Of a stretch of DNA of 64,000 bases, positions 17,088 to 41,595 are shown piece by piece. The notes below the pieces were generated by a model, which was not told the DNA's origin, made no database searches, and worked only from the letters and a program-made list of their open reading frames with translations. Every line of letters begins with the position of its first letter. Position 1 is the first letter of the stretch. The position numbers and the translations under genes are program-made. The stretch is from Clostridium sp. (GTDB lineage: Bacteria > Bacillota > Clostridia > Clostridiales > Clostridiaceae), in contig NZ_DATCQT010000090.1 in NCBI RefSeq assembly GCF_036569345.1, forward strand, positions 4,201 through 68,200, in the 5' to 3' direction.

Positions 17088-17468
17088 ATGAAAAGAAGAA
17101 AGATTTTTTATGTTACATTATTTATAGCAGCTTTTTCTACTATATCTGGAGTGATAACTTATGCAGCTGGAGTGGCTATGCCCGGCGGTACTGTAGTTAT
17201 TGGTACTAAAGCCTATGATATTACCTATGCTAATGATTCTAAAAATGAATCTGAAATTACCGCAGCGCTGCTTGCTGGTGGTGAAATTTATGTTAAAGAT
17301 TTTGGATCAAGCTGGGTTGACAATAGTACCTCGGCAATTATAAATGCTAACATACTTCCTAGTGTAACTTATAAAAGTGCAACTGGTATTATAAGCACAT
17401 ATTCAGCTGGAGATGCAGGTAATAGTACACCCGTAACTGATGAATTTAAAATACTTAGCATAGAGTAA
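17088..17468 (+). CDS. Exported protein consisting almost only of the shared surface N-terminal module
   Basis: Signal peptide then GTVVIGTKAYDITYAND..AGGEIYVKDF..WVDN..LPSVTYK. Confidence 0.8.
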   Translation: MKRRKIFYVTLFIAAFSTISGVITYAAGVAMPGGTVVIGTKAYDITYANDSKNESEITAALLAGGEIYVKDFGSSWVDNSTSAIINANILPSVTYKSATGIISTYSAGDAGNSTPVTDEFKILSIE

Positions 17469-17563: not shown

Positions 17564-17959
17564 TTAATTTTTCTTAACTGCTTCTCCCTTTTGTAAACTC
17601 AAATCTACTGAATATGCCACTTTATCATCTGCTTTTAGAAGTTTAACCGCTACCTTATCCTTTTCTTTTCTAGCTGGATAAGCTGTAGTAGGTTTACCTA
17701 TTACTGTTTTTGGTGAAACAGCCTTTCCTTCATAAAATATCTGGTATTTTACAGCACCCTTATACTGTTTTTTTCCTTCTACTGAAAGAGTTACATTTAC
17801 TACAGAACTAAAAGCAGCTTTTCTTACTGTAGCAGTAATTGGTGCACTAGCCTGAGCTTTATTGGGTTTATTATTTATATAAAACACACTAGCAATTGCT
17901 ATGACAATTATTATAATAGCCAATATACCAATCACTTTTTTATTAATATTTTTTTTCAT
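17564..17959 (-). CDS. Membrane-anchored/exported hypothetical protein with ~80-aa beta-rich domain
   Basis: Basic N-terminus plus hydrophobic helix; YQIFYEG..TTAYP..VAVKLL domain. Confidence 0.75.
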   Translation of the reverse strand: MKKNINKKVIGILAIIIIVIAIASVFYINNKPNKAQASAPITATVRKAAFSSVVNVTLSVEGKKQYKGAVKYQIFYEGKAVSPKTVIGKPTTAYPARKEKDKVAVKLLKADDKVAYSVDLSLQKGEAVKKN

Positions 17960-17999: not shown

Positions 18000-18590
18000 C
18001 TATTTAGAGTTTAAAACTGTACTTAATTTTTTAATGACTTTCTTATTAACATCCATTAGATTTATTGTAACTCCTGTTCCAGCTTCTTGCGATGGAAAAA
18101 TATTTGTTTGGATTTTTGTAATGGCTTCCATCTTAGATATTGCTTTATTTCCCAGGAAAAACTGATAATATTTATAACTACTATCAAATTTACTATTATC
18201 AATAGAAATGTCTGCTATGGATCCAAAATTTGCAGCTTTAACAAATACCGTAATACCTACTTTAGCACTTTCGACTTTTGCTTGTTCTGCTGCCTTTACT
18301 TGCTCAGCAGTAACTTTATCACCAGTACTTGTTTTATCATTCACTGATCCAGTTGTCCCTGTTGTACCAGCCGTAGAAGTTGTACCTTTTGCGCCAGTTG
18401 CATCAGTTGTTGAATTTCCTTTTGCTGTTGTTCCACCGTTCTTATCTAATCCTTCGGTCTTAATAGCGTTTTTAGTTTTATTATTTGCGTTTATCTTATC
18501 ATTCTGATTTTTGTTAATAAGTAGAAATCCAGCTATTATTACCACAATTACTACTAATGAAATTGCTATTTTTTTATAGTTTTTTTTCAT
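18000..18590 (-). CDS. Membrane-anchored hypothetical protein with Thr/Gly linker and the same beta-rich domain
   Basis: TM helix, TAGTTGTTG linker, YYQFFLG..TNIFP..VTINLM. Confidence 0.75.
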   Translation of the reverse strand: MKKNYKKIAISLVVIVVIIAGFLLINKNQNDKINANNKTKNAIKTEGLDKNGGTTAKGNSTTDATGAKGTTSTAGTTGTTGSVNDKTSTGDKVTAEQVKAAEQAKVESAKVGITVFVKAANFGSIADISIDNSKFDSSYKYYQFFLGNKAISKMEAITKIQTNIFPSQEAGTGVTINLMDVNKKVIKKLSTVLNSK

Positions 18591-18604: not shown

Positions 18605-19453
18605 TTACTCTGATTTAAAATATACTTTGCAGTTGCTTATATCAAAATCTTTATTAACAATATAATCTTCTGTTATAGTAAAATCATAAATTTTAGCTTT
18701 ATGAGGATTTACATTTACATTTTCAATATTAAAGATGCCTTTAGCCACTACTTCCCCTGAATCATCCTTAACTATAATTGGTAATCTTTCTAATTTTACG
18801 ACTTTGTCACAACCATTACGGATTAGAAAAACTATAGAAATAGAATTATTTAAACACTTTAATACTTTAAATACCTCAATATTCACATCTCCAGCTTTTA
18901 TTAAAGGTAATTCATTTAAAAATTTTGTAAAAGTACCTTCTAATTCATGGTGAACATCACCAGGAAATCCCTCAAATTGAACCTGTACAGTATTTATAGC
19001 ACTAATAGATTTTTCAAATTTTATTTTCCAATCATCCTTTGAAATTGAATCAACAAATAAGCTAGTCTTATCAAAATAAACTTTATATGGTCTTGCAGAA
19101 AAAGGAGGTAATATACCAAAATCGTTCATGTCCATAACTTGTTTTGCAAGTATATCTCCATTATTGTTTACAATTACTAGTGGCACTTTGTCAAAATTAA
19201 TCTGTTTTGACAATCCATTTCTTAAATAAACACTAACCTCAATTTTATTTTCTATTTCAAAGGTGTATATACCATTGATAGATACTTGTCCTTCTTCCAT
19301 AGGTGGTAGTGTATCTAATTCTTCTCTTAAAAATTCCTTTTGATAATCTGACATAACCCCTTTATCATAATCATTAAGATACAGCTTTATATTTAGCGCC
19401 TTTTTTTCTTTTGTCGTTACATTATTGCTTGCTATTAAATTATTACTTGTCAT
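18605..19453 (-). CDS. SLAP-domain (duplicated) S-layer assembly-associated protein
   Basis: Two repeats VYLRNG..VPLVIVNNNGDILAK and FLIRNG..LPIIVKDDSGEVVAKG typical of SLAP domains. Confidence 0.75.
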   Translation of the reverse strand: MTSNNLIASNNVTTKEKKALNIKLYLNDYDKGVMSDYQKEFLREELDTLPPMEEGQVSINGIYTFEIENKIEVSVYLRNGLSKQINFDKVPLVIVNNNGDILAKQVMDMNDFGILPPFSARPYKVYFDKTSLFVDSISKDDWKIKFEKSISAINTVQVQFEGFPGDVHHELEGTFTKFLNELPLIKAGDVNIEVFKVLKCLNNSISIVFLIRNGCDKVVKLERLPIIVKDDSGEVVAKGIFNIENVNVNPHKAKIYDFTITEDYIVNKDFDISNCKVYFKSE

Positions 19454-19713: not shown

Positions 19714-22050
19714 TTATTTATTCCCAATAGTTACATTTGCAGTTGCTTTAATAATAGAATCAACTACTGATTCCACAACTATAGAATCAGTCCCTGTTAT
19801 TACTCCAGTGTATGTTACATACATTTTTTTATCAACATCATCATAATTAACTACTGCAATAACCTTAGTTCCATTTACTATTTTAACCATAGTGGGATCA
19901 GTTATAACTTTTCCATATTGGTCAAGTACAACTATTTCTTTTTTTACAGCAACTCCCACAATTAATGAAACATTTACGTCTACAATTGTTATAGATTTTA
20001 TTGCACTTTTAGCTCTTACAATTACGTTTAATGTATCTTTAATAACATCAACCTCATCTATTGCTTTATTACCAACTGTTACAATTAATGTTGTGTTTTC
20101 CACAAAACTATTAACTGAAGTTTTGCTAGGATCAAATTTCACAGCTAATCCCTGTGCCCCAGCAAAGTCAGTTTCAATAATAGATCCTTGTGCATCATGT
20201 TTATAATAAATAAGGCTTGCAAAACCAGAAGCTTCCTTTATTCCATTTTTAGTGGAAATTCTCCAATTCGTAATATCAGGAATTATTTCATCCCCCTTAT
20301 TGTCTACTACACTTAGGACCCTATAAACAGGAGCCGTAGCATTAGCTATAATACTATTATCTCCAATGTTATTTCCAAGTTCAATCGACTTAAGTGTTGT
20401 AACCTCTGCCGATATTTCTAAATTATAGGTTGCAACCGTACCATTCACGTTTATATTTATTATATAATTCCCAGCAGCCTTAGCCTCAAACCTTAATGAC
20501 TTAACAACTCCAGTGGTTGCTACTTGCCCATCTTTATCTAATTTTTCAACTATTACATTATTAGATGTTATCCCATCATCACTATAAACTAAAGCAGTGA
20601 CATTATCACCTGCAACGTCTATAACTTCATTATTAGCATTTCTTATTACTAAATTTGCGTTTTGTTTTGTATTAACTTTAAGCTTTGGTAATGTTATAGA
20701 ATCAATTGTGGTTGTAACTGGATTTATGGTAGTTACTACATCAAATTTAGCTGCTTTTATAGTATCCTCTGCATCAAATGAAGTTCCTATATATGGAGTG
20801 ACTTCATAATTTCCAGCTTTTAATGTTCTAGCACTAATTACTATATTGTTTTTATAATAATCAGTACCACCTCTAAGTGATGCTGTAACTACTATATCAC
20901 TGGCCGAAATATCACTAGTTTTAGGAGTTACATTAAATTTAATCATATCAGGTGTTAATAAAGCACCATTATTTTGAGTTATTTTATTATATTTAACATC
21001 TTCATTATTAAACTTAGTAATTGGATTTTCGGAAGTTAACGTGAGCCCTGTAAGTTTTGTTGCTCCTACCTCAACTGTATAAGTAACTTTGACACCATTA
21101 AGAATGTTATAAGCACTTATAGTTACTGTACCAGCTTTTATAGCTTTAAAAGTAACGGTATTCACAGTTGTATCTAATGTTAATTTGCTACTATTAAGGT
21201 CAGAAGTACTATCCAGTAAGTTGCCACCCACCTCAACTATCCATCTTAATTTATTAATTGATAAATCTGTAGGGTTGTTATATTGGTCGCGTACATCGAC
21301 TCTTAAAATTACTGCCGCATCCCCAACTAAGACAGTATCTGCGGATGTTGTCACCGATAAAATTGACTTAGGGGATATTGGCTCATCCTTCCCTACTGTA
21401 TAATTATTGCTTATTGAAGATACTAATTCAGCAGTTGAAGATACCGCATCTTTATCAAATTTTTCTAACATTATAACTACAGCGTCATTTTCAGTTAATT
21501 TTTTATTTATTGTGATTTTTGCCATATTTCTATCTGTATCCAATCTTATTTCTGCATCACTTAAAGGCACTCCGTTTACTGTTGCCGTTACTTTATATGA
21601 AGAATCTGTTACGATATTGAAATCTTTTCCATATTGATCTACAGCTGTAAAATAAGCAAAATTAGATATATTTGTAATTTCATTTGTTACACTAGTAAAT
21701 GTTTTTGGATAGGCTGTTTCCTTAACAACTTGGTTTGTATCTGCAGCATCAAATCCAATTGTTTCATTACCATCTTTGTAAACAACGGCTGGTATAAGGC
21801 TTGTAGCTATAGGAAGTCCTGTAACATTATCTATCCAATCTCCATTGAAATTTTTAACATAAACTGGTCCACCTTCAACTATTGCATTAGTGATTTCACC
21901 CATATTTAATGGATCATTAGAATATCCTAAATCAAAAGCTTTATCCCCTATTACCATTGTTCCATTCTTCATTGCTGCAATCGTCGTAATAGATGTTAAG
22001 GCTGCCATCATTAAAGCAGCAAGGACTGAACTTGCAATTTTCTTGTTCAT
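19714..22050 (-). CDS. S-layer-like/Ig-fold surface protein with shared N-terminal module
   Basis: Signal peptide, shared module, then ~670 aa of Thr/Val-rich beta repeats (AVDQYG, VRDQYN, VLDQYG). Confidence 0.75.
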   Translation of the reverse strand: MNKKIASSVLAALMMAALTSITTIAAMKNGTMVIGDKAFDLGYSNDPLNMGEITNAIVEGGPVYVKNFNGDWIDNVTGLPIATSLIPAVVYKDGNETIGFDAADTNQVVKETAYPKTFTSVTNEITNISNFAYFTAVDQYGKDFNIVTDSSYKVTATVNGVPLSDAEIRLDTDRNMAKITINKKLTENDAVVIMLEKFDKDAVSSTAELVSSISNNYTVGKDEPISPKSILSVTTSADTVLVGDAAVILRVDVRDQYNNPTDLSINKLRWIVEVGGNLLDSTSDLNSSKLTLDTTVNTVTFKAIKAGTVTISAYNILNGVKVTYTVEVGATKLTGLTLTSENPITKFNNEDVKYNKITQNNGALLTPDMIKFNVTPKTSDISASDIVVTASLRGGTDYYKNNIVISARTLKAGNYEVTPYIGTSFDAEDTIKAAKFDVVTTINPVTTTIDSITLPKLKVNTKQNANLVIRNANNEVIDVAGDNVTALVYSDDGITSNNVIVEKLDKDGQVATTGVVKSLRFEAKAAGNYIININVNGTVATYNLEISAEVTTLKSIELGNNIGDNSIIANATAPVYRVLSVVDNKGDEIIPDITNWRISTKNGIKEASGFASLIYYKHDAQGSIIETDFAGAQGLAVKFDPSKTSVNSFVENTTLIVTVGNKAIDEVDVIKDTLNVIVRAKSAIKSITIVDVNVSLIVGVAVKKEIVVLDQYGKVITDPTMVKIVNGTKVIAVVNYDDVDKKMYVTYTGVITGTDSIVVESVVDSIIKATANVTIGNK

Positions 22051-23780: not shown

Positions 23781-25304
23781 TTATTGTAATAAAATACTAT
23801 CAGGGAATTTTTCATTAATCCAATTTTTAATCTCATTTGGCATATCACTAGCCCCTCGTTCAGTAGTATAATATTGAACTATAGCATTACCCATAGAATC
23901 AATATGTGAGAAAGCTAATCTAATATTTCCATTTTCGTCTAATTGTATGATACCTTCCATTATTGTGAATAAGCCAGGCTTTCCTCCAACTATTGTATAA
24001 GTTTTATTGATGTCATTATATTCTATATCTGTGGATATTGAATACATACAATCTTTAAATAGATCATAGTCAATTCCTAGTAATTCTTTAATCTTAGTAT
24101 CCACAACTGGTTCAGTAAATAAGTTGTAACTTTCATCTAATCTATTTTTGTAATTTGCAACAATATCGCCCACTGGATCCACATTTTCTATAACAAAATC
24201 TTTAAATATAATATTTCTATAAAAAGCATTAACTGCAGTATAATCATTAATTTGATTGCCCTTTAAATATAACTCTGTCAAGTTAATAAGTCCTCTTAAA
24301 GGTTCTATGTTAGTAATTTGATTGTACTCTAAATACAACCTATTCAAGTTAGTAAGTACACTTAAAGAGTCTAGATTACTGACTTGATTGAACCTTAAAG
24401 AGAACGTATTTAAAGTTATTAATCCTTTTAAAGGTTCAATGTTGCTTATTTTATTGTAATCTAAAAATAACTGAGTTAAGTTAGTAATCCCTCTTAACGC
24501 ATCTATGTTACTGATTTGATTGTTATCAGAAAGTAACGTAGTTAATTTAGTCATTCCTCTTAGAGAATCCATATCGCTAATTTGATTGTTATCTAAATCC
24601 AACTCAGTCAAGTTAGTTAATCCTCTTAAAGGTTCTATATTGTTGATTTGGTTGCTTTGTATATACAGCTCATTCAAGTTAACTAATCCTTTTAATGGTT
24701 CTATGTTGCTTACTCGGTTGTAACATAACCACAAATATTTCAAGTTAGTTAATCCTCTTAAAGGCTCTATGTTGCTAACTTGATCGTAAGATAAAACCAA
24801 TTTAGTTAAGCTGGTCAATTTTTCGATCCCTGAAAGATTTGTTATATTTTTCGATGGAATATTCAGTTCTGTTATTGTATCCACATCGCCTTTTAAAATA
24901 TCTCCAGTAGGTTTATTAATTTCATTTCTAACTTCCTTTTCTAAATTCTGATCTGGAAATGTAATAATTGTACTACTATCCACAACATCTTTATCTTGCG
25001 CATCATAATTAATTTCTTTATCAGCATTGGTATAAATTACAGCTGGTATAACATTTGCGTCAACAGGCTCACCACTATTATTGTCAATCCAAATTCCATC
25101 GAAACCTTTAACATAAACTTCTCCACCTGCAATTATTGCATCGGCAATTTTCTGAAGATTAACTGGGTCATTAGCATATTCTAAGTCAAAAGCCTTGTTT
25201 CCTATTACAACAGAACCACTCGTCATTGATGCAAACGCTGTGAAATATGTTGATCCTGCAATCATTAAAGTAGCTAGTGCAGTACTTATAATTTTCTTGT
25301 TCAT
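23781..25304 (-). CDS. Internalin-like LRR surface protein with shared N-terminal module
   Basis: Shared module, cap ITFPDQNLEKEVR, ~9 22-aa LRRs (LRGLTNLTELDLDNNQISD), unrelated C-terminal domain. Confidence 0.88.
   Translation of the reverse strand: MNKKIISTALATLMIAGSTYFTAFASMTSGSVVIGNKAFDLEYANDPVNLQKIADAIIAGGEVYVKGFDGIWIDNNSGEPVDANVIPAVIYTNADKEINYDAQDKDVVDSSTIITFPDQNLEKEVRNEINKPTGDILKGDVDTITELNIPSKNITNLSGIEKLTSLTKLVLSYDQVSNIEPLRGLTNLKYLWLCYNRVSNIEPLKGLVNLNELYIQSNQINNIEPLRGLTNLTELDLDNNQISDMDSLRGMTKLTTLLSDNNQISNIDALRGITNLTQLFLDYNKISNIEPLKGLITLNTFSLRFNQVSNLDSLSVLTNLNRLYLEYNQITNIEPLRGLINLTELYLKGNQINDYTAVNAFYRNIIFKDFVIENVDPVGDIVANYKNRLDESYNLFTEPVVDTKIKELLGIDYDLFKDCMYSISTDIEYNDINKTYTIVGGKPGLFTIMEGIIQLDENGNIRLAFSHIDSMGNAIVQYYTTERGASDMPNEIKNWINEKFPDSILLQ
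24230..24860 (-). repeat. 66-bp tandem coding repeats (LRR units)
   Basis: Recurring agttagttaatcctcttaaaggttctat-like units at 66-bp period inside the LRR gene. Confidence 0.8.
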
Positions 25305-25349: not shown

Positions 25350-26915
25350 TTAGTTAAAAACAGGAATATCAAAAGTTAATGTAACGTCTGGAAATAAGTC
25401 GAAACAACTTTTAATGATTCTTATTTGACTATTTGCCCAATTAACATCTGTTGCATATTGATGATAAATATTTAAAGGGTTCCATCTCATTTTATAAAGC
25501 GTATTTTGGTAATTTCCTATATACCCTTTCGAAATCCATGCTGCCCCTCCATAAATTGCTAAATCTATACTTGTCCACCCATTTGTGAATGCAGTGCTTG
25601 TACCAAATGCATCCGGATCACTGTCAATTGCTCCAATACCAAATAAATTATACACAGGAATCCCATTTGTATAGTTTCCACTAGAATCTTTTGTACCACC
25701 ATTTGCTAAAAGTGAAGTGCCATATCCCGTTTCCAAAATCGCATGAGCCGCCAAATATATAGGATTAACATTATTTGCTTTTGCTGCATCAATAAACACT
25801 TGACCCTTACCCTTTAATGTACCATTAGATCCGAATACTGAATCCAATTGAGCCGCAGTTACACAATCAACATAATTCAATACTATAAACTCATAAATTT
25901 TTGCTGAATCATTTTCTAAATTTAAAGGATCTACATTTTTTACAAGTTGATCTTTAATACTATTATAAACTGCTAATGAATTTACCCAAGATCCATTAGG
26001 ATTCTTCATATCCGTAAAGTATCCTGGTTGTCCATTTTTTATTAAAGCATAACACCATTGACCATTAATAGCTGCTGCAGGTGTATTTAACATTTCTTGG
26101 CTAATAAAATCACTTAATAAAACATCATATTTTGTTAAAGTAAATGTATTATCTCCCTTAGATACTAATGCATCCAATACATTAATATTAGCTATTCTAA
26201 CATTAAACTCTTCTTTTTTAGTAGTATCTTTAACAACTCCTACAATTTCAGTTGCTGTTGTTACATCAACATTCATTCTAGAAGTTTCTGCTACTTTAAC
26301 TGCTGTTTCTGCCGCATCAATATTTGCTAAATCAGGATTTACTCCAACTACAACATTAACAGTTATATCTGGTTTTGTTCCGGTTACACCCTCTGGGAGT
26401 GCATAATCACCATTGAATATATACGATGATGTCTTTGTTTCATCATAATTAGAGCTTGTCCAAGTAACGTCAACCTCTTTAGTTGTATTATTACTTAATT
26501 TAAGTGTTACTTTTGCTGGCAAATTGGCATTAGCAACTGTTGTTCCGTAAACTACATTGATAGTATTAAAAGGATTAACTGATATTATATTCACTTGATC
26601 TTTATCTGCAGCATCAAAATTAATTTGTTTATCCACACTCTTATACACTACAGCTGGTATAACACTAGCTTCTACGACTTCACCTGTATTATTGTTAATC
26701 CAAATTCCATCAAACCCTTTGACATAAACTTCTCCAGCTGATAGTAATGCATTAGAAATTTGATAAAGATTAGCTGGGTCATTTGCATAAGCTAAATCAA
26801 AAGCTTTACCACCTATAGCAACAGTACCACTAGGCATTGCAGCAAACGCAGTGAAAGATGTAAATCCTGCTATCATAATGGCAGCAAGAACAGAACTTGT
26901 AATTTTCTTGTACAT
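25350..26915 (-). CDS. Surface glucosaminidase (GH73) with shared N-terminal module and Ig-like domain
   Basis: AAKANNVNPIYLAAHAILETGYG, YNLFGIGAID, TLYKMRWNP..HQYATDVNWA. Confidence 0.88.
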   Translation of the reverse strand: MYKKITSSVLAAIMIAGFTSFTAFAAMPSGTVAIGGKAFDLAYANDPANLYQISNALLSAGEVYVKGFDGIWINNNTGEVVEASVIPAVVYKSVDKQINFDAADKDQVNIISVNPFNTINVVYGTTVANANLPAKVTLKLSNNTTKEVDVTWTSSNYDETKTSSYIFNGDYALPEGVTGTKPDITVNVVVGVNPDLANIDAAETAVKVAETSRMNVDVTTATEIVGVVKDTTKKEEFNVRIANINVLDALVSKGDNTFTLTKYDVLLSDFISQEMLNTPAAAINGQWCYALIKNGQPGYFTDMKNPNGSWVNSLAVYNSIKDQLVKNVDPLNLENDSAKIYEFIVLNYVDCVTAAQLDSVFGSNGTLKGKGQVFIDAAKANNVNPIYLAAHAILETGYGTSLLANGGTKDSSGNYTNGIPVYNLFGIGAIDSDPDAFGTSTAFTNGWTSIDLAIYGGAAWISKGYIGNYQNTLYKMRWNPLNIYHQYATDVNWANSQIRIIKSCFDLFPDVTLTFDIPVFN

Positions 26916-27257: not shown

Positions 27258-28100
27258 TTATAAAACTATTGGAGCAACTAAAATCACATCAATTATTTTA
27301 ACTACTGTTCCAGCTGTATTTAATAATTTAATTGTAACTGTATCTCCAACAACTTTTCCTGGGTATATTATTGTATCTGTTCCCAAATTAGCAATATTTG
27401 ATAAAACTCTTATTCCATCAAATATTTGGTATTGTGTAACGCCCTCTTGAGTTGACGTAACGCTTACTTTTGCTCCAATAGTAGCTGCTTGTACCGTTGC
27501 AATGACTAGTGTTTGTATTGGATTTTTAACTATAACAGTACAAGTTGAAGTCTTACTTCCATCCACTGTTGTTACCGTTATAGTTGCTGTCCCAGCACCT
27601 ACTGCTATTACCTTTCCGGTATTATCTACTGTTACTACCTTATTATCTGAAGATGCCCATGTTACCTTTTTATTTGCTGCATCTGTTGGGTTTATTATAG
27701 CTATTAAATTATCTGTTTTACCTACTATAAGAGAATCTGTGGTTTTATCTAAACTCACTGATTTAACTGGTGTGGCAATTTTCTCTTGATCTTCAGCACC
27801 ATAATTAATATCCTCATCATCACTCTTATAAACTACAGCTGGTATAACCTTTTCTTCTACAGCTTTATCTGTATTATTGTCAACCCAAATTCCATCAAAA
27901 CCTTTAATATAAACTTCCCCACCAGCCATAATTGCACTAGTTATTTTTTCGATATTAACTGGATCATTAGCATACTGTAAATCAAAAGCTACGTTACCTA
28001 TAACAAGACTACCCCTCGGCATTGCAGCAAAAGCTGTGAAAGATGTCACTCCTGCTATCATTAATGCAGCAATAGCTGAGCTTATAATTTTCTTATTCAT
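27258..28100 (-). CDS. Surface protein: shared N-terminal module, Big_2 Ig domain, C-terminal beta domain
   Basis: VKSVSLDKT..PTDAANKKVTWASSD..VDNTGKVIAVGAGTATITVTTVDG Big_2 pattern. Confidence 0.87.
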   Translation of the reverse strand: MNKKIISSAIAALMIAGVTSFTAFAAMPRGSLVIGNVAFDLQYANDPVNIEKITSAIMAGGEVYIKGFDGIWVDNNTDKAVEEKVIPAVVYKSDDEDINYGAEDQEKIATPVKSVSLDKTTDSLIVGKTDNLIAIINPTDAANKKVTWASSDNKVVTVDNTGKVIAVGAGTATITVTTVDGSKTSTCTVIVKNPIQTLVIATVQAATIGAKVSVTSTQEGVTQYQIFDGIRVLSNIANLGTDTIIYPGKVVGDTVTIKLLNTAGTVVKIIDVILVAPIVL

Positions 28101-28333
28101 ATATTTATACCCCCTTTTATTTTTAAATCTTAATTTTAATATAAAGCCTATACATTTTTAATATAATTTTTAAATTTTACTATCTAATCCTTATATTTAT
28201 ATATATCGTCTACATTTTTAAATAGTTTATAGTCAACATCATTTATTTTAACGACAAAGAAACTACTGAAATATATATTTCAGTAGTTCCATAGTAATGT
28301 GTAACTTACATATGTTTGTTGCAATTTTTAATC

Positions 28334-29329
28334 TTACTTTGGAGCTACAACTGTGCTCTGATCCAAAGTCACAGCAGTCTGTGCAAGTAGTCTACCATTT
28401 ATTGATGCATTAGTCCCTAGATCGATATTTGTCTTGCTCATTATATTTCCCTCAAAGTGCGAATTAGTTCCAATCGAAACTGTTCCCGCTGCCTGCCAGA
28501 ATATGTTCTTGGCTTGTGCTCCACCCGTTAGGATAATTTTAGCTCCGCTAGCTTGGGTAATTCCTTTAGCTATTTGGAAAATAAAAATATCGTTTGGTCC
28601 ACCACTTAGAGTTACATCAGAATTTATTAAAACATCTGTACCCCACTTGTAAACACCAGCCCTAAGTGTTTTGCCACTAATATCTCCAGTATACAGTTCT
28701 GTATAACCCGCAGCTCTTCCAGCAGCATCTGTGTATGCTGTTTCCATGTTGCTTACAGCTGTAGTTAGGTCACTTGGAGTTGTAGAACCATAATCCGAAG
28801 CATATACCATCCCTGTAATTTGGCTGGAAACTGAAAATTCATTAGTGGCATCAGCTGTCAAAGAAAATCCAGTAATGGCAGTCGAACCAATTGGGCTAAC
28901 TCCTATATTCCCAGTAATAATACTATTTGGTACGGAAGATATTCCCGATTTCGATAAAATAGCATAATTACCAGCAGTCCCAAGATTTACTGGAGCTACG
29001 TTAACGTAATCTTTATCTGCAACATCAAAGTTAGTTATTACTCCAGTAGCATTTTTATAAACTACAGCTGGTATAATACTTTCGTCTACAACTTCATTCG
29101 TATTATTGTTAATCCAAACTCCATCAAATCCTTTAACATAAACTTCAACATCTGAAGCTATCGCACTACTGATTTCATCAACATTTTTAGGGTCATTAGC
29201 ATACCCTAGGTCAAAAGCTTGGCCACCTATTACTACTGTACCATTATGCATTGCAGCCACCGCCGTCAAAGATGTTGACCCTACTATCATTAAAGCAGCA
29301 AGAACTGTACTTGTAATTTTCTTATTCAT
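28334..29329 (-). CDS. Ice-binding protein (DUF3494/IBP-1 fold) with shared N-terminal module
   Basis: VNLGTAGNYAILSKSGIS, ITGNIGVSP, METAYTDAAGR, TLRAGVYKW, FIFQI, GGAQAKNIFWQ, GRLLAQTAVTLD. Confidence 0.92.
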   Translation of the reverse strand: MNKKITSTVLAALMIVGSTSLTAVAAMHNGTVVIGGQAFDLGYANDPKNVDEISSAIASDVEVYVKGFDGVWINNNTNEVVDESIIPAVVYKNATGVITNFDVADKDYVNVAPVNLGTAGNYAILSKSGISSVPNSIITGNIGVSPIGSTAITGFSLTADATNEFSVSSQITGMVYASDYGSTTPSDLTTAVSNMETAYTDAAGRAAGYTELYTGDISGKTLRAGVYKWGTDVLINSDVTLSGGPNDIFIFQIAKGITQASGAKIILTGGAQAKNIFWQAAGTVSIGTNSHFEGNIMSKTNIDLGTNASINGRLLAQTAVTLDQSTVVAPK

Positions 29330-29402
29330 ACATTTATTTCTCCTTTTGTGGATTAATTTTACCTATTTACTATTAATAGTTTTTTACGTTTTATACTTAT
29401 AT

Positions 29403-29429
29403 AACGATTACCACAACAATAAAGTTGCA
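29403..29429 (-). promoter_or_regulatory. ECF-type promoter TGCAAC-N17-CGTT
   Basis: Minus strand tgcaac tttattgttgtggtaat cgttatat upstream of the ice-binding gene. Confidence 0.65.
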
Positions 29430-29908
29430 TTTTTGTATATTTTTTATAATTAGTATAAATTAAACCATTATGAATCAAATATTAATTAAGCTTAAAATTT
29501 TCTAAAAGCTATTATTAAACTTAATGCTTTTCATTTTTTACACTTATATAAAACACGTTATGACAATATATTTTTTCTTTTTAAACGTTTTTATGATTAA
29601 TCTATAAATAAAATACCTATGTTCCTCTTTACATTAAAAAACTATGATGATGAAACTGCAGTATTAGTCTATATTTGTTCCACGAAAATTAAAGGATTAT
29701 GACATGTAACGTTGAAGTAAATAATTCGGGGATTTTTATAAAAAGTATCTAGCTCTCTTCAGTTATTTACTTCCACGTCTTCATAATTTAACCTTTCATT
29801 AACATATAATAATTATAGTTATACAGAATAAATGCATATAAAATTATGTGTTTGTTCTATCGAGGGTACAATTTCAATGTTACTAAAAAATTTGGGGGAA
29901 TATAAAAA

Positions 29909-32128: not shown

Positions 32129-32686
32129 TCAGTCAATGCTCTGTTCTACAAATTTTTTATATAATTCTCTACAGTTAATACTTCTATAATAATTAAGAAT
32201 TTTACTAGAATCTATTAACTTCTCTTCATTTAAGCCTATAAACATTCCATAACTACTCCATTTATAATTTTCTGGGGCTTGCACCATATTTGCTTTTACA
32301 GGATTTAAATGTATATACCGACTCACTTCTAATTTATAAGTCTCATCTTGAATAATATCCCAATGATATCTTCCTTGAAATAAATGCCCTATTAAAATAT
32401 ACTTATTGTTAAAGTATCTTGTATAAAATTCATTCAATCTCTTCATTATTTTACTTATTATTTCATTATTTGTTTCTATAACTAAATGTACATGATTTGT
32501 CATCATGCAATAGCAATATAATATAGCATTGTACTTTTCTAATACTTCTCCTAATATTCTAATGTAAACTTTATAATCTTCTACATCTCTAAAAATATCA
32601 TTTCTATGATTCCCTCGTTCAGTTATATGATATGTTGCTCCAGGATACCATATAAGTGCTTTTCTTCCCATATAATAAGCCTCCAT
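32129..32686 (-). CDS. REP-associated tyrosine transposase (RAYT; Y1/HUH)
   Basis: PGATYHITERGNHRNDIF, YCMMTNHVHL (HUH), GHLFQGRY, YIHLNPVKA, YKWSSY. Confidence 0.9.
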   Translation of the reverse strand: MEAYYMGRKALIWYPGATYHITERGNHRNDIFRDVEDYKVYIRILGEVLEKYNAILYCYCMMTNHVHLVIETNNEIISKIMKRLNEFYTRYFNNKYILIGHLFQGRYHWDIIQDETYKLEVSRYIHLNPVKANMVQAPENYKWSSYGMFIGLNEEKLIDSSKILNYYRSINCRELYKKFVEQSID

Positions 32687-40346: not shown

Positions 40347-40880
40347 CTACATAAGAGCTTTCAGTTTCTCCAGTGCTTTTTTCTTAATTCTTAACAACTG
40401 ATAGTAGCTTTTATCACTATCACAGGCAACTTCCGAAAGGGGCTTTCCCAAAACATAAAACCCATCTATTATTGTACGCTCTAAGGGATCAAGAGTATCA
40501 AGAGCCACATTTAATTTTTTCACTTCCGCATAAGCTATCACTTCATCTTCTAAGGTAAATTCATAATTTCCTGCAGTATCGAAGTCTAACATATCATTGT
40601 TTGGGACTTCTCTAAAATGTTTTATTTCCCCTTTCAAAAGGGCTTTGAAATTCAATCTTATAGCATTTATACAATAGCCATTAAAGCTGTTGCTACCTAA
40701 TTTATACATCGCTATGGCTTTTACAACTGAAAGATAACCATGCTGAATTAAGTCTTCTAGTTCATATCCTGGAATGTGATATCTTGAAGCCTCTTTGATT
40801 ATTAGATACTTGAATTTTTCTATTATCTCGCCCATAGCACCATTATCTTTAGTTTTAGCCTTTTCAACTAGTTTTTCCAT
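40347..40880 (-). CDS. Alternative sigma-70 family factor (SigH-like/clostridial group-5-like)
   Basis: Region 2 YELEDLIQHGYLSVVKAI..SFNGYCINAIR; region 4 LDPLERTII..LSEVA..KKKALEKL. Confidence 0.8.
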   Translation of the reverse strand: MEKLVEKAKTKDNGAMGEIIEKFKYLIIKEASRYHIPGYELEDLIQHGYLSVVKAIAMYKLGSNSFNGYCINAIRLNFKALLKGEIKHFREVPNNDMLDFDTAGNYEFTLEDEVIAYAEVKKLNVALDTLDPLERTIIDGFYVLGKPLSEVACDSDKSYYQLLRIKKKALEKLKALM

Positions 40881-40978
40881 AATATACACCCACCTTTTTA
40901 ATTTTTAATTGGATATATTCAAAGATAATTTATTAGTGCTTGTCCTAATAACTATCTTTAAATTAATCCCTTCACATA

Positions 40979-41446
40979 TTAGCCAATGAGAGGTGTAGTT
41001 TGGTAACCAGATTTATTTAAAAGTTTTCTCAGCTTGTTAAGAACCTTCTTATTCCTTTTAACAATAGCTACATGTGAAACGTTTTCATTTTTTGCGATTT
41101 CTCTAACTGTAAGTTTTTTATAGTAAACATTTTTTATGAAATCTTGCTCTTTAGGGTTTAGTTCTACCATAGCCTCCTGTAAAATAATAAGCATTACTTT
41201 ATCGCATATAATATCTTCTATAGTTTTGTCATCTGTAAAATCTGTTCCATGCTCCATTAACCTATCAATAGAATCCTCTTTACTCGGAATAAAAGTAGTA
41301 ACCCCACTTTCTTCATTAACATCAATACGTCCAATCTTGATGTCGTTTTCCATATACCTCTCTCGTCTTGCCATTTTGTAATACTCTTTGTATATCTCCT
41401 CACTTACCTTTACTAATTCACTACCAATTTTAATAACTTTGTTCAT
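40979..41446 (-). CDS. Sigma-70 region-4 HTH protein of the type found in Firmicute integrative elements
   Basis: VSEEIYKEYYKMARRERY, LNPKEQDFI..TVREIA..SHVAIVKR; start at ATG 41446, 8 nt after GGAGG. Confidence 0.78.
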   Translation of the reverse strand: MNKVIKIGSELVKVSEEIYKEYYKMARRERYMENDIKIGRIDVNEESGVTTFIPSKEDSIDRLMEHGTDFTDDKTIEDIICDKVMLIILQEAMVELNPKEQDFIKNVYYKKLTVREIAKNENVSHVAIVKRNKKVLNKLRKLLNKSGYQTTPLIG

Positions 41447-41493
41447 TTTCATATCCTCCTTTGATTGTTTTGAGAGTTTTTTACCTGAGCAGC

Positions 41494-41595
41494 AAAAAAA
41501 AATAGCCAGGCAACAGCTAAAATTAATTAGCTGTTGTCCGGCTATTTGGTCACTCATGGTGCCATTGCTAGTCACTCATGGTGCCTTTGCTCGGT
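41494..41595 (-). promoter_or_regulatory. Attenuator-like leader element 2 (conserved box, 22-bp tandem repeat, terminator)
   Basis: Minus strand accgagcaaagg box, two 22-bp copies (41549-41570, 41571-41592), hairpin atagccggacaacagcta/tagctgttgcctggctat plus T-run. Confidence 0.7.

Follow-up and report, generated by a model that had tools for sequence, protein, structure and literature searches.

A DUF3494 ice-binding protein joined to a shared N-terminal module in a cold-adapted Clostridium, and its possible retention on the cell envelope

Does an anaerobe that makes an ice-binding protein (IBP) keep it on its own surface, and if so, what holds it there? The question is raised by an open reading frame (ORF) at positions 28334-29329, on the minus strand, of a 64,000-nt stretch of Clostridium sp. 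DNA (contig NZ_DATCQT010000090.1, positions 4,201 to 68,200, of RefSeq assembly GCF_036569345.1), here called the window. An earlier note on this DNA, made from the letters alone, described the product as a complete DUF3494-type domain fused to a module shared with neighboring genes, and our analysis bears this out: Pfam family PF11999 (Ice_binding) is matched over profile positions 1-207 of 208, and the signal peptide plus N-terminal module (N-module; residues 1-107 together) are common to five other ORFs in the window. Judging from sequence and predicted structure, we somewhat favor an account in which a Sec-exported ice-binding protein would be held on the envelope through this shared module.

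The ORF is intact and encodes 331 aa from an ATG start. A ribosome-binding site, AAGGAG, can be read 10 nt 5' of the ATG (29340..29345, minus strand), and the gene is followed by an intrinsic terminator (28259..28290, minus strand), a hairpin of 14 pairs and then a T-run; since it has its own terminator, the gene appears to be monocistronic. Residues 1-26 form a Sec-type signal peptide (29252..29329, minus strand) made up of MNKK, a hydrophobic core and the cleavage motif TAVA/A, with no lipobox Cys. The N-module occupies residues 27-107 (29009..29251, minus strand) and is a compact alpha/beta domain that profile searches and AlphaFold2 modeling left without a family assignment. Residues 110-331 (28337..29002, minus strand) make up the DUF3494/Ice_binding beta-helix domain. 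With the N-module reaching to about residue 107 and the ice-binding domain starting near residue 110, the alignments and the AlphaFold2 model leave a linker of 10 residues or fewer. A lipoprotein anchor was also considered and was ruled out because the protein contains no cysteine.

Is the C-terminal part of this protein a genuine ice-binding domain? PF11999 covered residues 124-327 (E 1.9e-71) with 240.5 bits against a curated cut-off of 28.7 bits, and alignments to solved structures widened the domain to residues 110-330. Over this span, end-to-end alignments in the PDB were obtained with mFfIBP (4NU3; E 1.6e-69), with proteins of Ca. Cryosericum odellii (9LHN, 9LI0, 9LHS, and 9LHR) and, further, with the Typhula antifreeze isoforms, LeIBP, FfIBP, and ColAFP; identity to crystallized IBPs (Ca. 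Cryosericum odellii, mFfIBP, and TisAFP8) was 50-57%. The AlphaFold2 model had a predicted local distance difference test score (pLDDT) above 90 across residues 113-331, with a long helix at 185-204, and Foldseek superposed it on 9lhn, 4nu3, and 5b5h with template modeling (TM) scores of 0.93-0.95 and root-mean-square deviations of 1.1-1.8 A. The model thus has the fold that defines the family, an irregular triangular beta-helix with a long alpha-helix alongside. Against the NCBIfam equivalog NF045625 (IBP_CFB, the Bacteroidota type), the score of 240.5 bits fell under the cut-off of 400, so the protein is a relative of that subgroup and not a member of it. Considered together, these results make residues 110-331 a canonical DUF3494 beta-helix that most likely binds ice.

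The predicted ice-binding face allows some statement about how active the domain might be. Its central strand reads QTAVTL, exactly as in mFfIBP and the Cryosericum proteins. When the sequence was mapped onto TisAFP7 and TisAFP8, Thr321 aligned with TisAFP position Ala214, at the center of the ice-binding sheet, and Val320 with position 213, which faces inward. Ala151 aligned with Phe43, a position that is Phe in hyperactive forms and Ser in the moderate TisAFP6; indeed, Phe43 is a feature of the hyperactive TisAFP7, TisAFP8, and ColAFP (PMC7966756). In FfIBP, activity is raised by a disulfide that stiffens the capping head (PMC10853241), and a protein with no cysteine lacks this bond. In line with its absence, the domain scored higher, at 238 bits, against 4NU3, a chimera with the LeIBP cap, than against native FfIBP (184 bits). 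Since Ala occupies the Phe43 position and the disulfide is absent, the protein is probably moderate rather than hyperactive, with moderate thermal hysteresis, good recrystallization inhibition, and ice shaping to be expected.

What kind of organism carries this gene, and where did the domain come from? A housekeeping protein encoded in the window fell in the same 90%-identity cluster as its counterparts in C. tagluense, C. algoriphilum, and C. psychrophilum, which places the organism in the cold-adapted Clostridium group. The closest ice-binding domains (75-84% identity) were those of C. algoriphilum, C. vincentii, C. frigoris, C. lacusfryxellense, Paenisporosarcina sp. TG-14, Paenibacillus psychroresistens, and Desulfosporosinus metagenome-assembled genomes, that is, of Antarctic, permafrost, and glacier Firmicutes, whose proteins join the domain to SLH, fn3, or Big_2. 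Within the genus, 19 of 30 genomes have a PF11999 match; the 31 genomes sampled across 21 neighboring genera have none. In our tree, the Firmicute domains formed one clade with 99 support in the Shimodaira-Hasegawa-like approximate likelihood ratio test (SH-aLRT), within which Clostridia and Bacilli were mixed on short branches, while archaeal (Methanoregula) and dinoflagellate (Polarella) sequences fell outside it. Such a mixed, short-branched clade fits horizontal exchange among cold-habitat organisms. Both the psychrophilic host and the horizontal spread of the domain among cold-habitat microbes, as put forward in the earlier note, are therefore in keeping with the identity of the nearest relatives, the tree, and the genus-restricted distribution. 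A recent foreign origin was also considered on base composition, as the ice-binding domain (28337-29002) has 40.5% GC overall and 25% at third codon positions, compared with 30-34% and 15-23% in neighboring genes and 30.7% GC in the genome. This candidate was set aside, since the signal is weak and partly due to Gly/Ala-rich content, and the nearest relatives are of the same genus.

Few proteins combine the two parts. Besides the present genome, the fusion turned up in two sequences from metagenomes, P0003 and P0012, whose ice-binding domains group with that of the window (SH-aLRT 93) and in which the N-module and the ice-binding domain are separated by an SbsC_C-like Ig domain and a Pro/Thr linker. 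None of 11 IBP genes from ten genomes of the same genus (nine of this subtype and two distant) carries the N-module. The genome itself also holds a second, distant DUF3494 gene (C162:34379-34942, L002; 257 aa), with a signal peptide and without the module, as well as a short PF11999 fragment (C47:40463-40582, L003).

The partner of the domain proved harder to place. Pfam and NCBIfam scans of the N-module gave noise only and no model, and a word-based homolog search was too insensitive, returning 3 relatives; hence, we searched 1.84 billion representative proteins exhaustively with a profile. This yielded 304 family members, 185 of them at E <= 1e-10. Among 120 full-length matches the module was terminal in every case, lying directly after the signal peptide (start at about residue 27) in 115 and at the extreme C-terminus in 5, and no LPXTG sorting signal occurred among 147 family members examined. 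In a full-length AlphaFold2 run with 9 module sequences, module pLDDT was 40-68; with an alignment of 57 sequences, which was used instead, the module folded as an alpha/beta domain with pLDDT 92.9 and a predicted TM score of 0.81. Three of its residues, Tyr43, Trp72, and Asn75, are invariant. Foldseek found no counterpart of this confident model in the PDB (best E = 2, TM 0.2), and a profile search against PDB sequences gave no match (best E 0.13). The genome contains ten copies in two clusters, six in the window and four on contig C70, and of the other genomes of the genus 14 of 29 carry 1-23 copies. Species with the module include C. tagluense, C. estertheticum, C. frigoris, C. frigoriphilum, C. 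bovifaecis, and C. tepidiprofundi. The last two are non-psychrophilic, and the module is therefore not a cold trait. On contig C70 (63064-67356), a 1431-aa 5'-nucleotidase/metallophosphatase-like protein ends in a C-terminal truncated copy of the module, with 53 of its 80 positions before the stop.

Are the module genes also expressed together? The earlier note gave the ice-binding gene a promoter shared with its neighbors, and this holds for half of the family in the window: a conserved block of ~45 bp with the core TGCAAC-N17-CGTTATATAAGT precedes the ice-binding gene, the glucosaminidase gene, and the gene for a 778-aa protein, and is missing from the other three module genes. Upstream of the ice-binding gene, the motif lies at 29395..29429 (minus strand), its 3' end ~65-70 nt 5' of the ATG, and motif comparison assigns it to the type recognized by extracytoplasmic function (ECF) sigma factors. 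A degenerate second copy, TATATTGTCATAACGTGTTTTATATAAGTGTAAAA, which relative to the consensus has lost its TGCAAC box, lies ~110 bp 5' of the intact one (29535..29570, minus strand). In the 4.7-Mb genome, where base composition predicts ~0.5 occurrences, the strict form TGCAAC-N17-CGTTATA has 8 copies; the two module loci contain 7 of these, four directly 5' of module genes and three in tandem before a Big_2 gene inside the second locus. The module loci of named relatives (275 kb) contained 26 copies of the motif, all oriented with the genes and in arrays of up to four. The strict motif was absent upstream of the sister fusion gene P0003.

In Bacillus subtilis, SigM, SigW, and SigX promoters carry a -35 box with AAC and a -10 box with CGT, separated by a spacer of 16-17 nt. 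TGCAAC-N17-CGTTATA, with its 17-nt spacer and small regulon, fits this pattern, and its distribution indicates that the motif marks a small, dedicated, ECF-like regulon related to the envelope. No sigma gene follows any of the 8 genomic copies, and no link was made between the motif and the sigma-like genes at 40347-41575 of the window. On contig C70 (68337-68965), three tandem copies of TGCAAC-N17-CGTTATATAA, ~115 bp apart, are accompanied by a degenerate fourth, and similar arrangements were seen at L010:679-1087 and L004:769-1053. The C70 array stands ~440 bp 5' of a gene encoding a 600-aa protein with a signal peptide, two Big_2 domains, and no N-module. A long leader behind several stacked promoters is characteristic of S-layer genes.

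Is the ice-binding protein, then, held on the cell? The cell attachment proposed in the earlier note is sustained by circumstantial evidence, and on balance we consider that the N-module may hold its passengers non-covalently on the envelope, at a wall polymer or the S-layer. Inside the cluster, at 18605..19453 (minus strand), lies a gene for a homolog of SlaP, an S-layer assembly protein of the accessory Sec system in Bacillus anthracis, with two SLAP_DUP domains (TIGR04398, E 3.4e-62; TIGR04399, acc_Sec_SLAP, 165 bits where the equivalog cut-off is 250). The slaP gene of B. anthracis stands beside secA2 and before the S-layer genes and supports secretion of S-layer proteins (PMC9277125). Retention is also suggested by the passengers, which resemble families of wall proteins (GH73 autolysin, leucine-rich repeat [LRR] and Ig-like proteins, serine proteases, and nucleotidase), and by the layout of P0003, in which the module, a Pro/Thr linker, an SbsC_C Ig-like domain, and the ice-binding domain follow one another as in an anchored and projected passenger. 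Furthermore, the usual wall-binding repeats are scarce: SLH (PF00395) had no match in the genome at E <= 1e-3 and CWB2 (PF04122) had one, and Pfam found neither in the ice-binding protein itself. Among the 30 genomes of the genus, CWB2 matches number no more than one in each of the 12 with 3-23 modules, and the module is absent from the 7 with 3-54 CWB2 matches (Fisher p = 0.024, not corrected for phylogeny); in the remaining 11 neither family is expanded, and two of these (G013 and G023) carry a single module copy.

Several findings weigh against retention. The module is acidic (median pI 4.5) and, by Foldseek and the PDB profile search, unlike any known wall-binding fold; one family member additionally bears CWB2, which would be redundant if both were wall anchors. 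The exclusion between module and CWB2 may reflect two clades, or one or two clade-level events. A search of the genome for SecA found one SecA and no SecA2, so the parallel with B. anthracis is incomplete and the SlaP homolog would act without SecA2. Lastly, the gene with the most promoter copies (C70, position 69380) encodes the protein without an N-module. Some of these facts would suit a freely secreted IBP that acts in the surrounding water, its N-module serving as a folding or export aid of a SlaP-assisted route, as an oligomerization domain, or as a binder of extracellular matrix. Such behavior would be usual, in that most characterized DUF3494 proteins are secreted and soluble (PMC9957290), and the very short linker would otherwise put the ice-binding domain within the zone of the wall or S-layer. 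However, copies of the module at the C-terminus argue against a pure export leader, and the GH73 autolysin and the nucleotidase among its passengers are normally wall-bound enzymes; the mutual exclusion of module and CWB2 and the spacer in P0003 are likewise difficult to reconcile with free release. We consider free secretion unlikely, though deserving of serious attention.

If the module does anchor the protein, a domain exposed at the surface could in principle fasten cells to ice (PMC5014055), as proposed for SfIBP_1 and shown for MpIBP, and the earlier note offered such an ice adhesin as one of two readings, next to a recrystallization inhibitor. This now appears improbable, since known adhesins project their ice-binding domains on tandem Ig or RTX repeats whereas no extender and a linker of at most 10 residues are found here, and since the benefit proposed for the MpIBP system, access to oxygen and light (PMC5550230), is inapplicable to an obligate anaerobe. 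The opposite doubt is that the domain does not bind ice at all and instead binds carbohydrate or acts as a generic beta-helix adhesin, as is suspected of many DUF3494 proteins from places without freezing. PF11999 is widespread outside icy habitats, and the family shows no consensus motif on the ice-binding face that could be diagnostic (PMC7966756); the lack of such a motif also weighs against our reading of the domain. Yet with 50-57% identity to established IBPs, 75-84% identity to glacier, permafrost, and Antarctic proteins, and absence of the subtype from the 31 genomes of neighboring genera, we regard this as very improbable.

Under the account that we favor, of an ice-binding protein retained on the envelope, the gene would be transcribed alone from its dedicated ECF-like promoter, TGCAAC-N17-CGTTATATAA, which is common to other members of the family. 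The product would be exported by Sec, its signal peptide cleaved, and the N-module would fold and dock on a wall polymer or the S-layer, filling the niche that CWB2 repeats hold in sister species. The beta-helix, no more than 10 residues from the module, would then present its flat ice-binding face directly at the cell surface, where ice crystals at the wall might be kept small, or a liquid film preserved around the cell, in frozen mats or permafrost. Since there is no extender region and the organism lives anaerobically, local protection seems preferable to long-range adhesion, and a surface-held recrystallization inhibitor would fit better than a long-reach ice adhesin. More tentatively, and with somewhat less confidence than we give to retention itself, the N-module could represent an unrecognized class of Gram-positive envelope anchor that replaces CWB2 in part of the genus, together with a SlaP-type factor and an alternative-sigma regulon, in which case the ice-binding protein would be displayed on the S-layer or wall.

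The surrounding genes give an impression of the variety of passengers that this module accompanies. Its five paralogs in the window all begin with a signal peptide and the N-module. The simplest, on the plus strand at 17088..17468, consists of these alone (126 aa). The remaining four are on the minus strand: the 778-aa gene (19714..22050), whose product continues into a 670-aa region that is S-layer-protein-like and without a Pfam match; a gene for an internalin-like LRR protein (23781..25304); the glucosaminidase gene (25350..26915), with Big_4 and GH73; and a gene with Big_2 (27258..28100). The 778-aa gene and the glucosaminidase gene are the two that share the promoter motif with the ice-binding gene. 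Across the family as a whole, the passenger types were GH73, LRR, Big_2, Big_4, S8 and trypsin proteases, and 5'-nucleotidase, and a slaP-type gene adjoins N-module genes in several relatives too. A ~90-aa repeat, whose core is (Q/K)YQIF.G...P and which has no Pfam match, forms the C-terminal ~90 aa of the Big_2 paralog at 27258-28100; it is also present in the products of 17564-17959 and 18000-18590, small membrane-anchored proteins by slaP, and twice in the Big_2 protein at C70:69380-71182.

The cluster is not fixed in its contents. From FtsH through an IS200-like Y1 transposase, window positions 8832-32686 are syntenic with metagenome relatives (L061/L062), and the Y1_Tnp gene (32129-32686) occupies the same place in both. 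In the slot of the Big_2 and ice-binding genes, the relatives have a CAP gene and a Big_4 gene instead, which suggests that this end of the cluster swaps passengers; the LRR, acyltransferase, and 778-aa genes are likewise absent from the metagenome relative locus. Exported proteins of ~740 aa with an SLH-like N-terminus were observed inside the module clusters of other relatives (L064:2618-4816, in G001; G003:C1:187607; and G029:C6:16483).

How much of this is new? Taken alone, the ice-binding domain is an unremarkable and well-conserved DUF3494 representative; InterPro lists 237 architectures for the family (PMC9957290), and fusions to anchoring or adhesion modules are already common. New are the undescribed, confidently folding partner module of 80 aa, its dedicated promoter, and its exclusion with CWB2 within one genus. 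Literature searches for IBPs in anaerobes, Clostridium included, for the Cryosericum structures, and for S-layers in the C. estertheticum group found nothing relevant, and no characterized IBP of a strict anaerobe appeared in the literature searched. Should the account of an envelope-held protein be correct, this would be the first surface-displayed IBP of an obligate anaerobe and would show how strict anaerobes of frozen mats and permafrost shield the cell surface from growing ice. The protein would also be a ready-made reporter for the anchor: if the N-module holds it to the cell, partitioning of whole cells by ice affinity would report surface display and thereby provide a simple test of the module.

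Comparison with known systems places each part of the locus in a different context. Relative to the single-domain DUF3494 IBPs (FfIBP and mFfIBP, 4NU2/4NU3; Ca. Cryosericum odellii, 9LHN/9LHS; TisAFP6-8; and LeIBP), the fold is the same, at 46-57% identity and TM 0.9-0.95, all have a signal peptide, and the QTAVTL strand is that of mFfIBP and Cryosericum; the 80-aa N-module is an addition here, while the capping-head disulfide of FfIBP is absent and Ala stands in place of the Phe43 of hyperactive TisAFP7, TisAFP8, and ColAFP. The tethered DUF3494 proteins, namely SfIBP_1 of Shewanella frigidimarina (6BG8) and the SLH-, fn3-, and Big_2-fused proteins of cold Firmicutes, likewise combine an ice-binding domain with a module expected to keep that domain on the cell. 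Indeed, SLH wall anchors accompany the domain in its closest relatives from Paenibacillus, Desulfosporosinus, and others. In the present protein, however, the partner is undescribed, being neither SLH nor Ig repeats nor a lipobox, and it is N-terminal with almost no spacer, the long extender of the ice adhesin MpIBP and the proposed one, SfIBP_1, having no equivalent. As in the CWB2 (Cwp) proteins of Clostridioides difficile and the SLH (BSL) proteins of B. anthracis, a single kind of terminal module is joined to diverse exported passengers encoded by clustered genes. However, the N-module has no similarity to CWB2 or SLH in sequence or fold, and as a putative wall-polymer binder it is present as a single 80-aa copy rather than as three repeats. 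The locus shares a SlaP homolog with the slaP/secA2 S-layer locus of B. anthracis (PMC9277125) but not SecA2. Finally, TGCAAC-N17-CGTTA fits the consensus of the B. subtilis ECF (group 4) promoters of SigM, SigW, and SigX, and would likewise serve a small, envelope-related regulon, whereas the conserved block is longer here (~45 bp, with TATAAGT after the CGT) and is repeated in tandem arrays of up to four.

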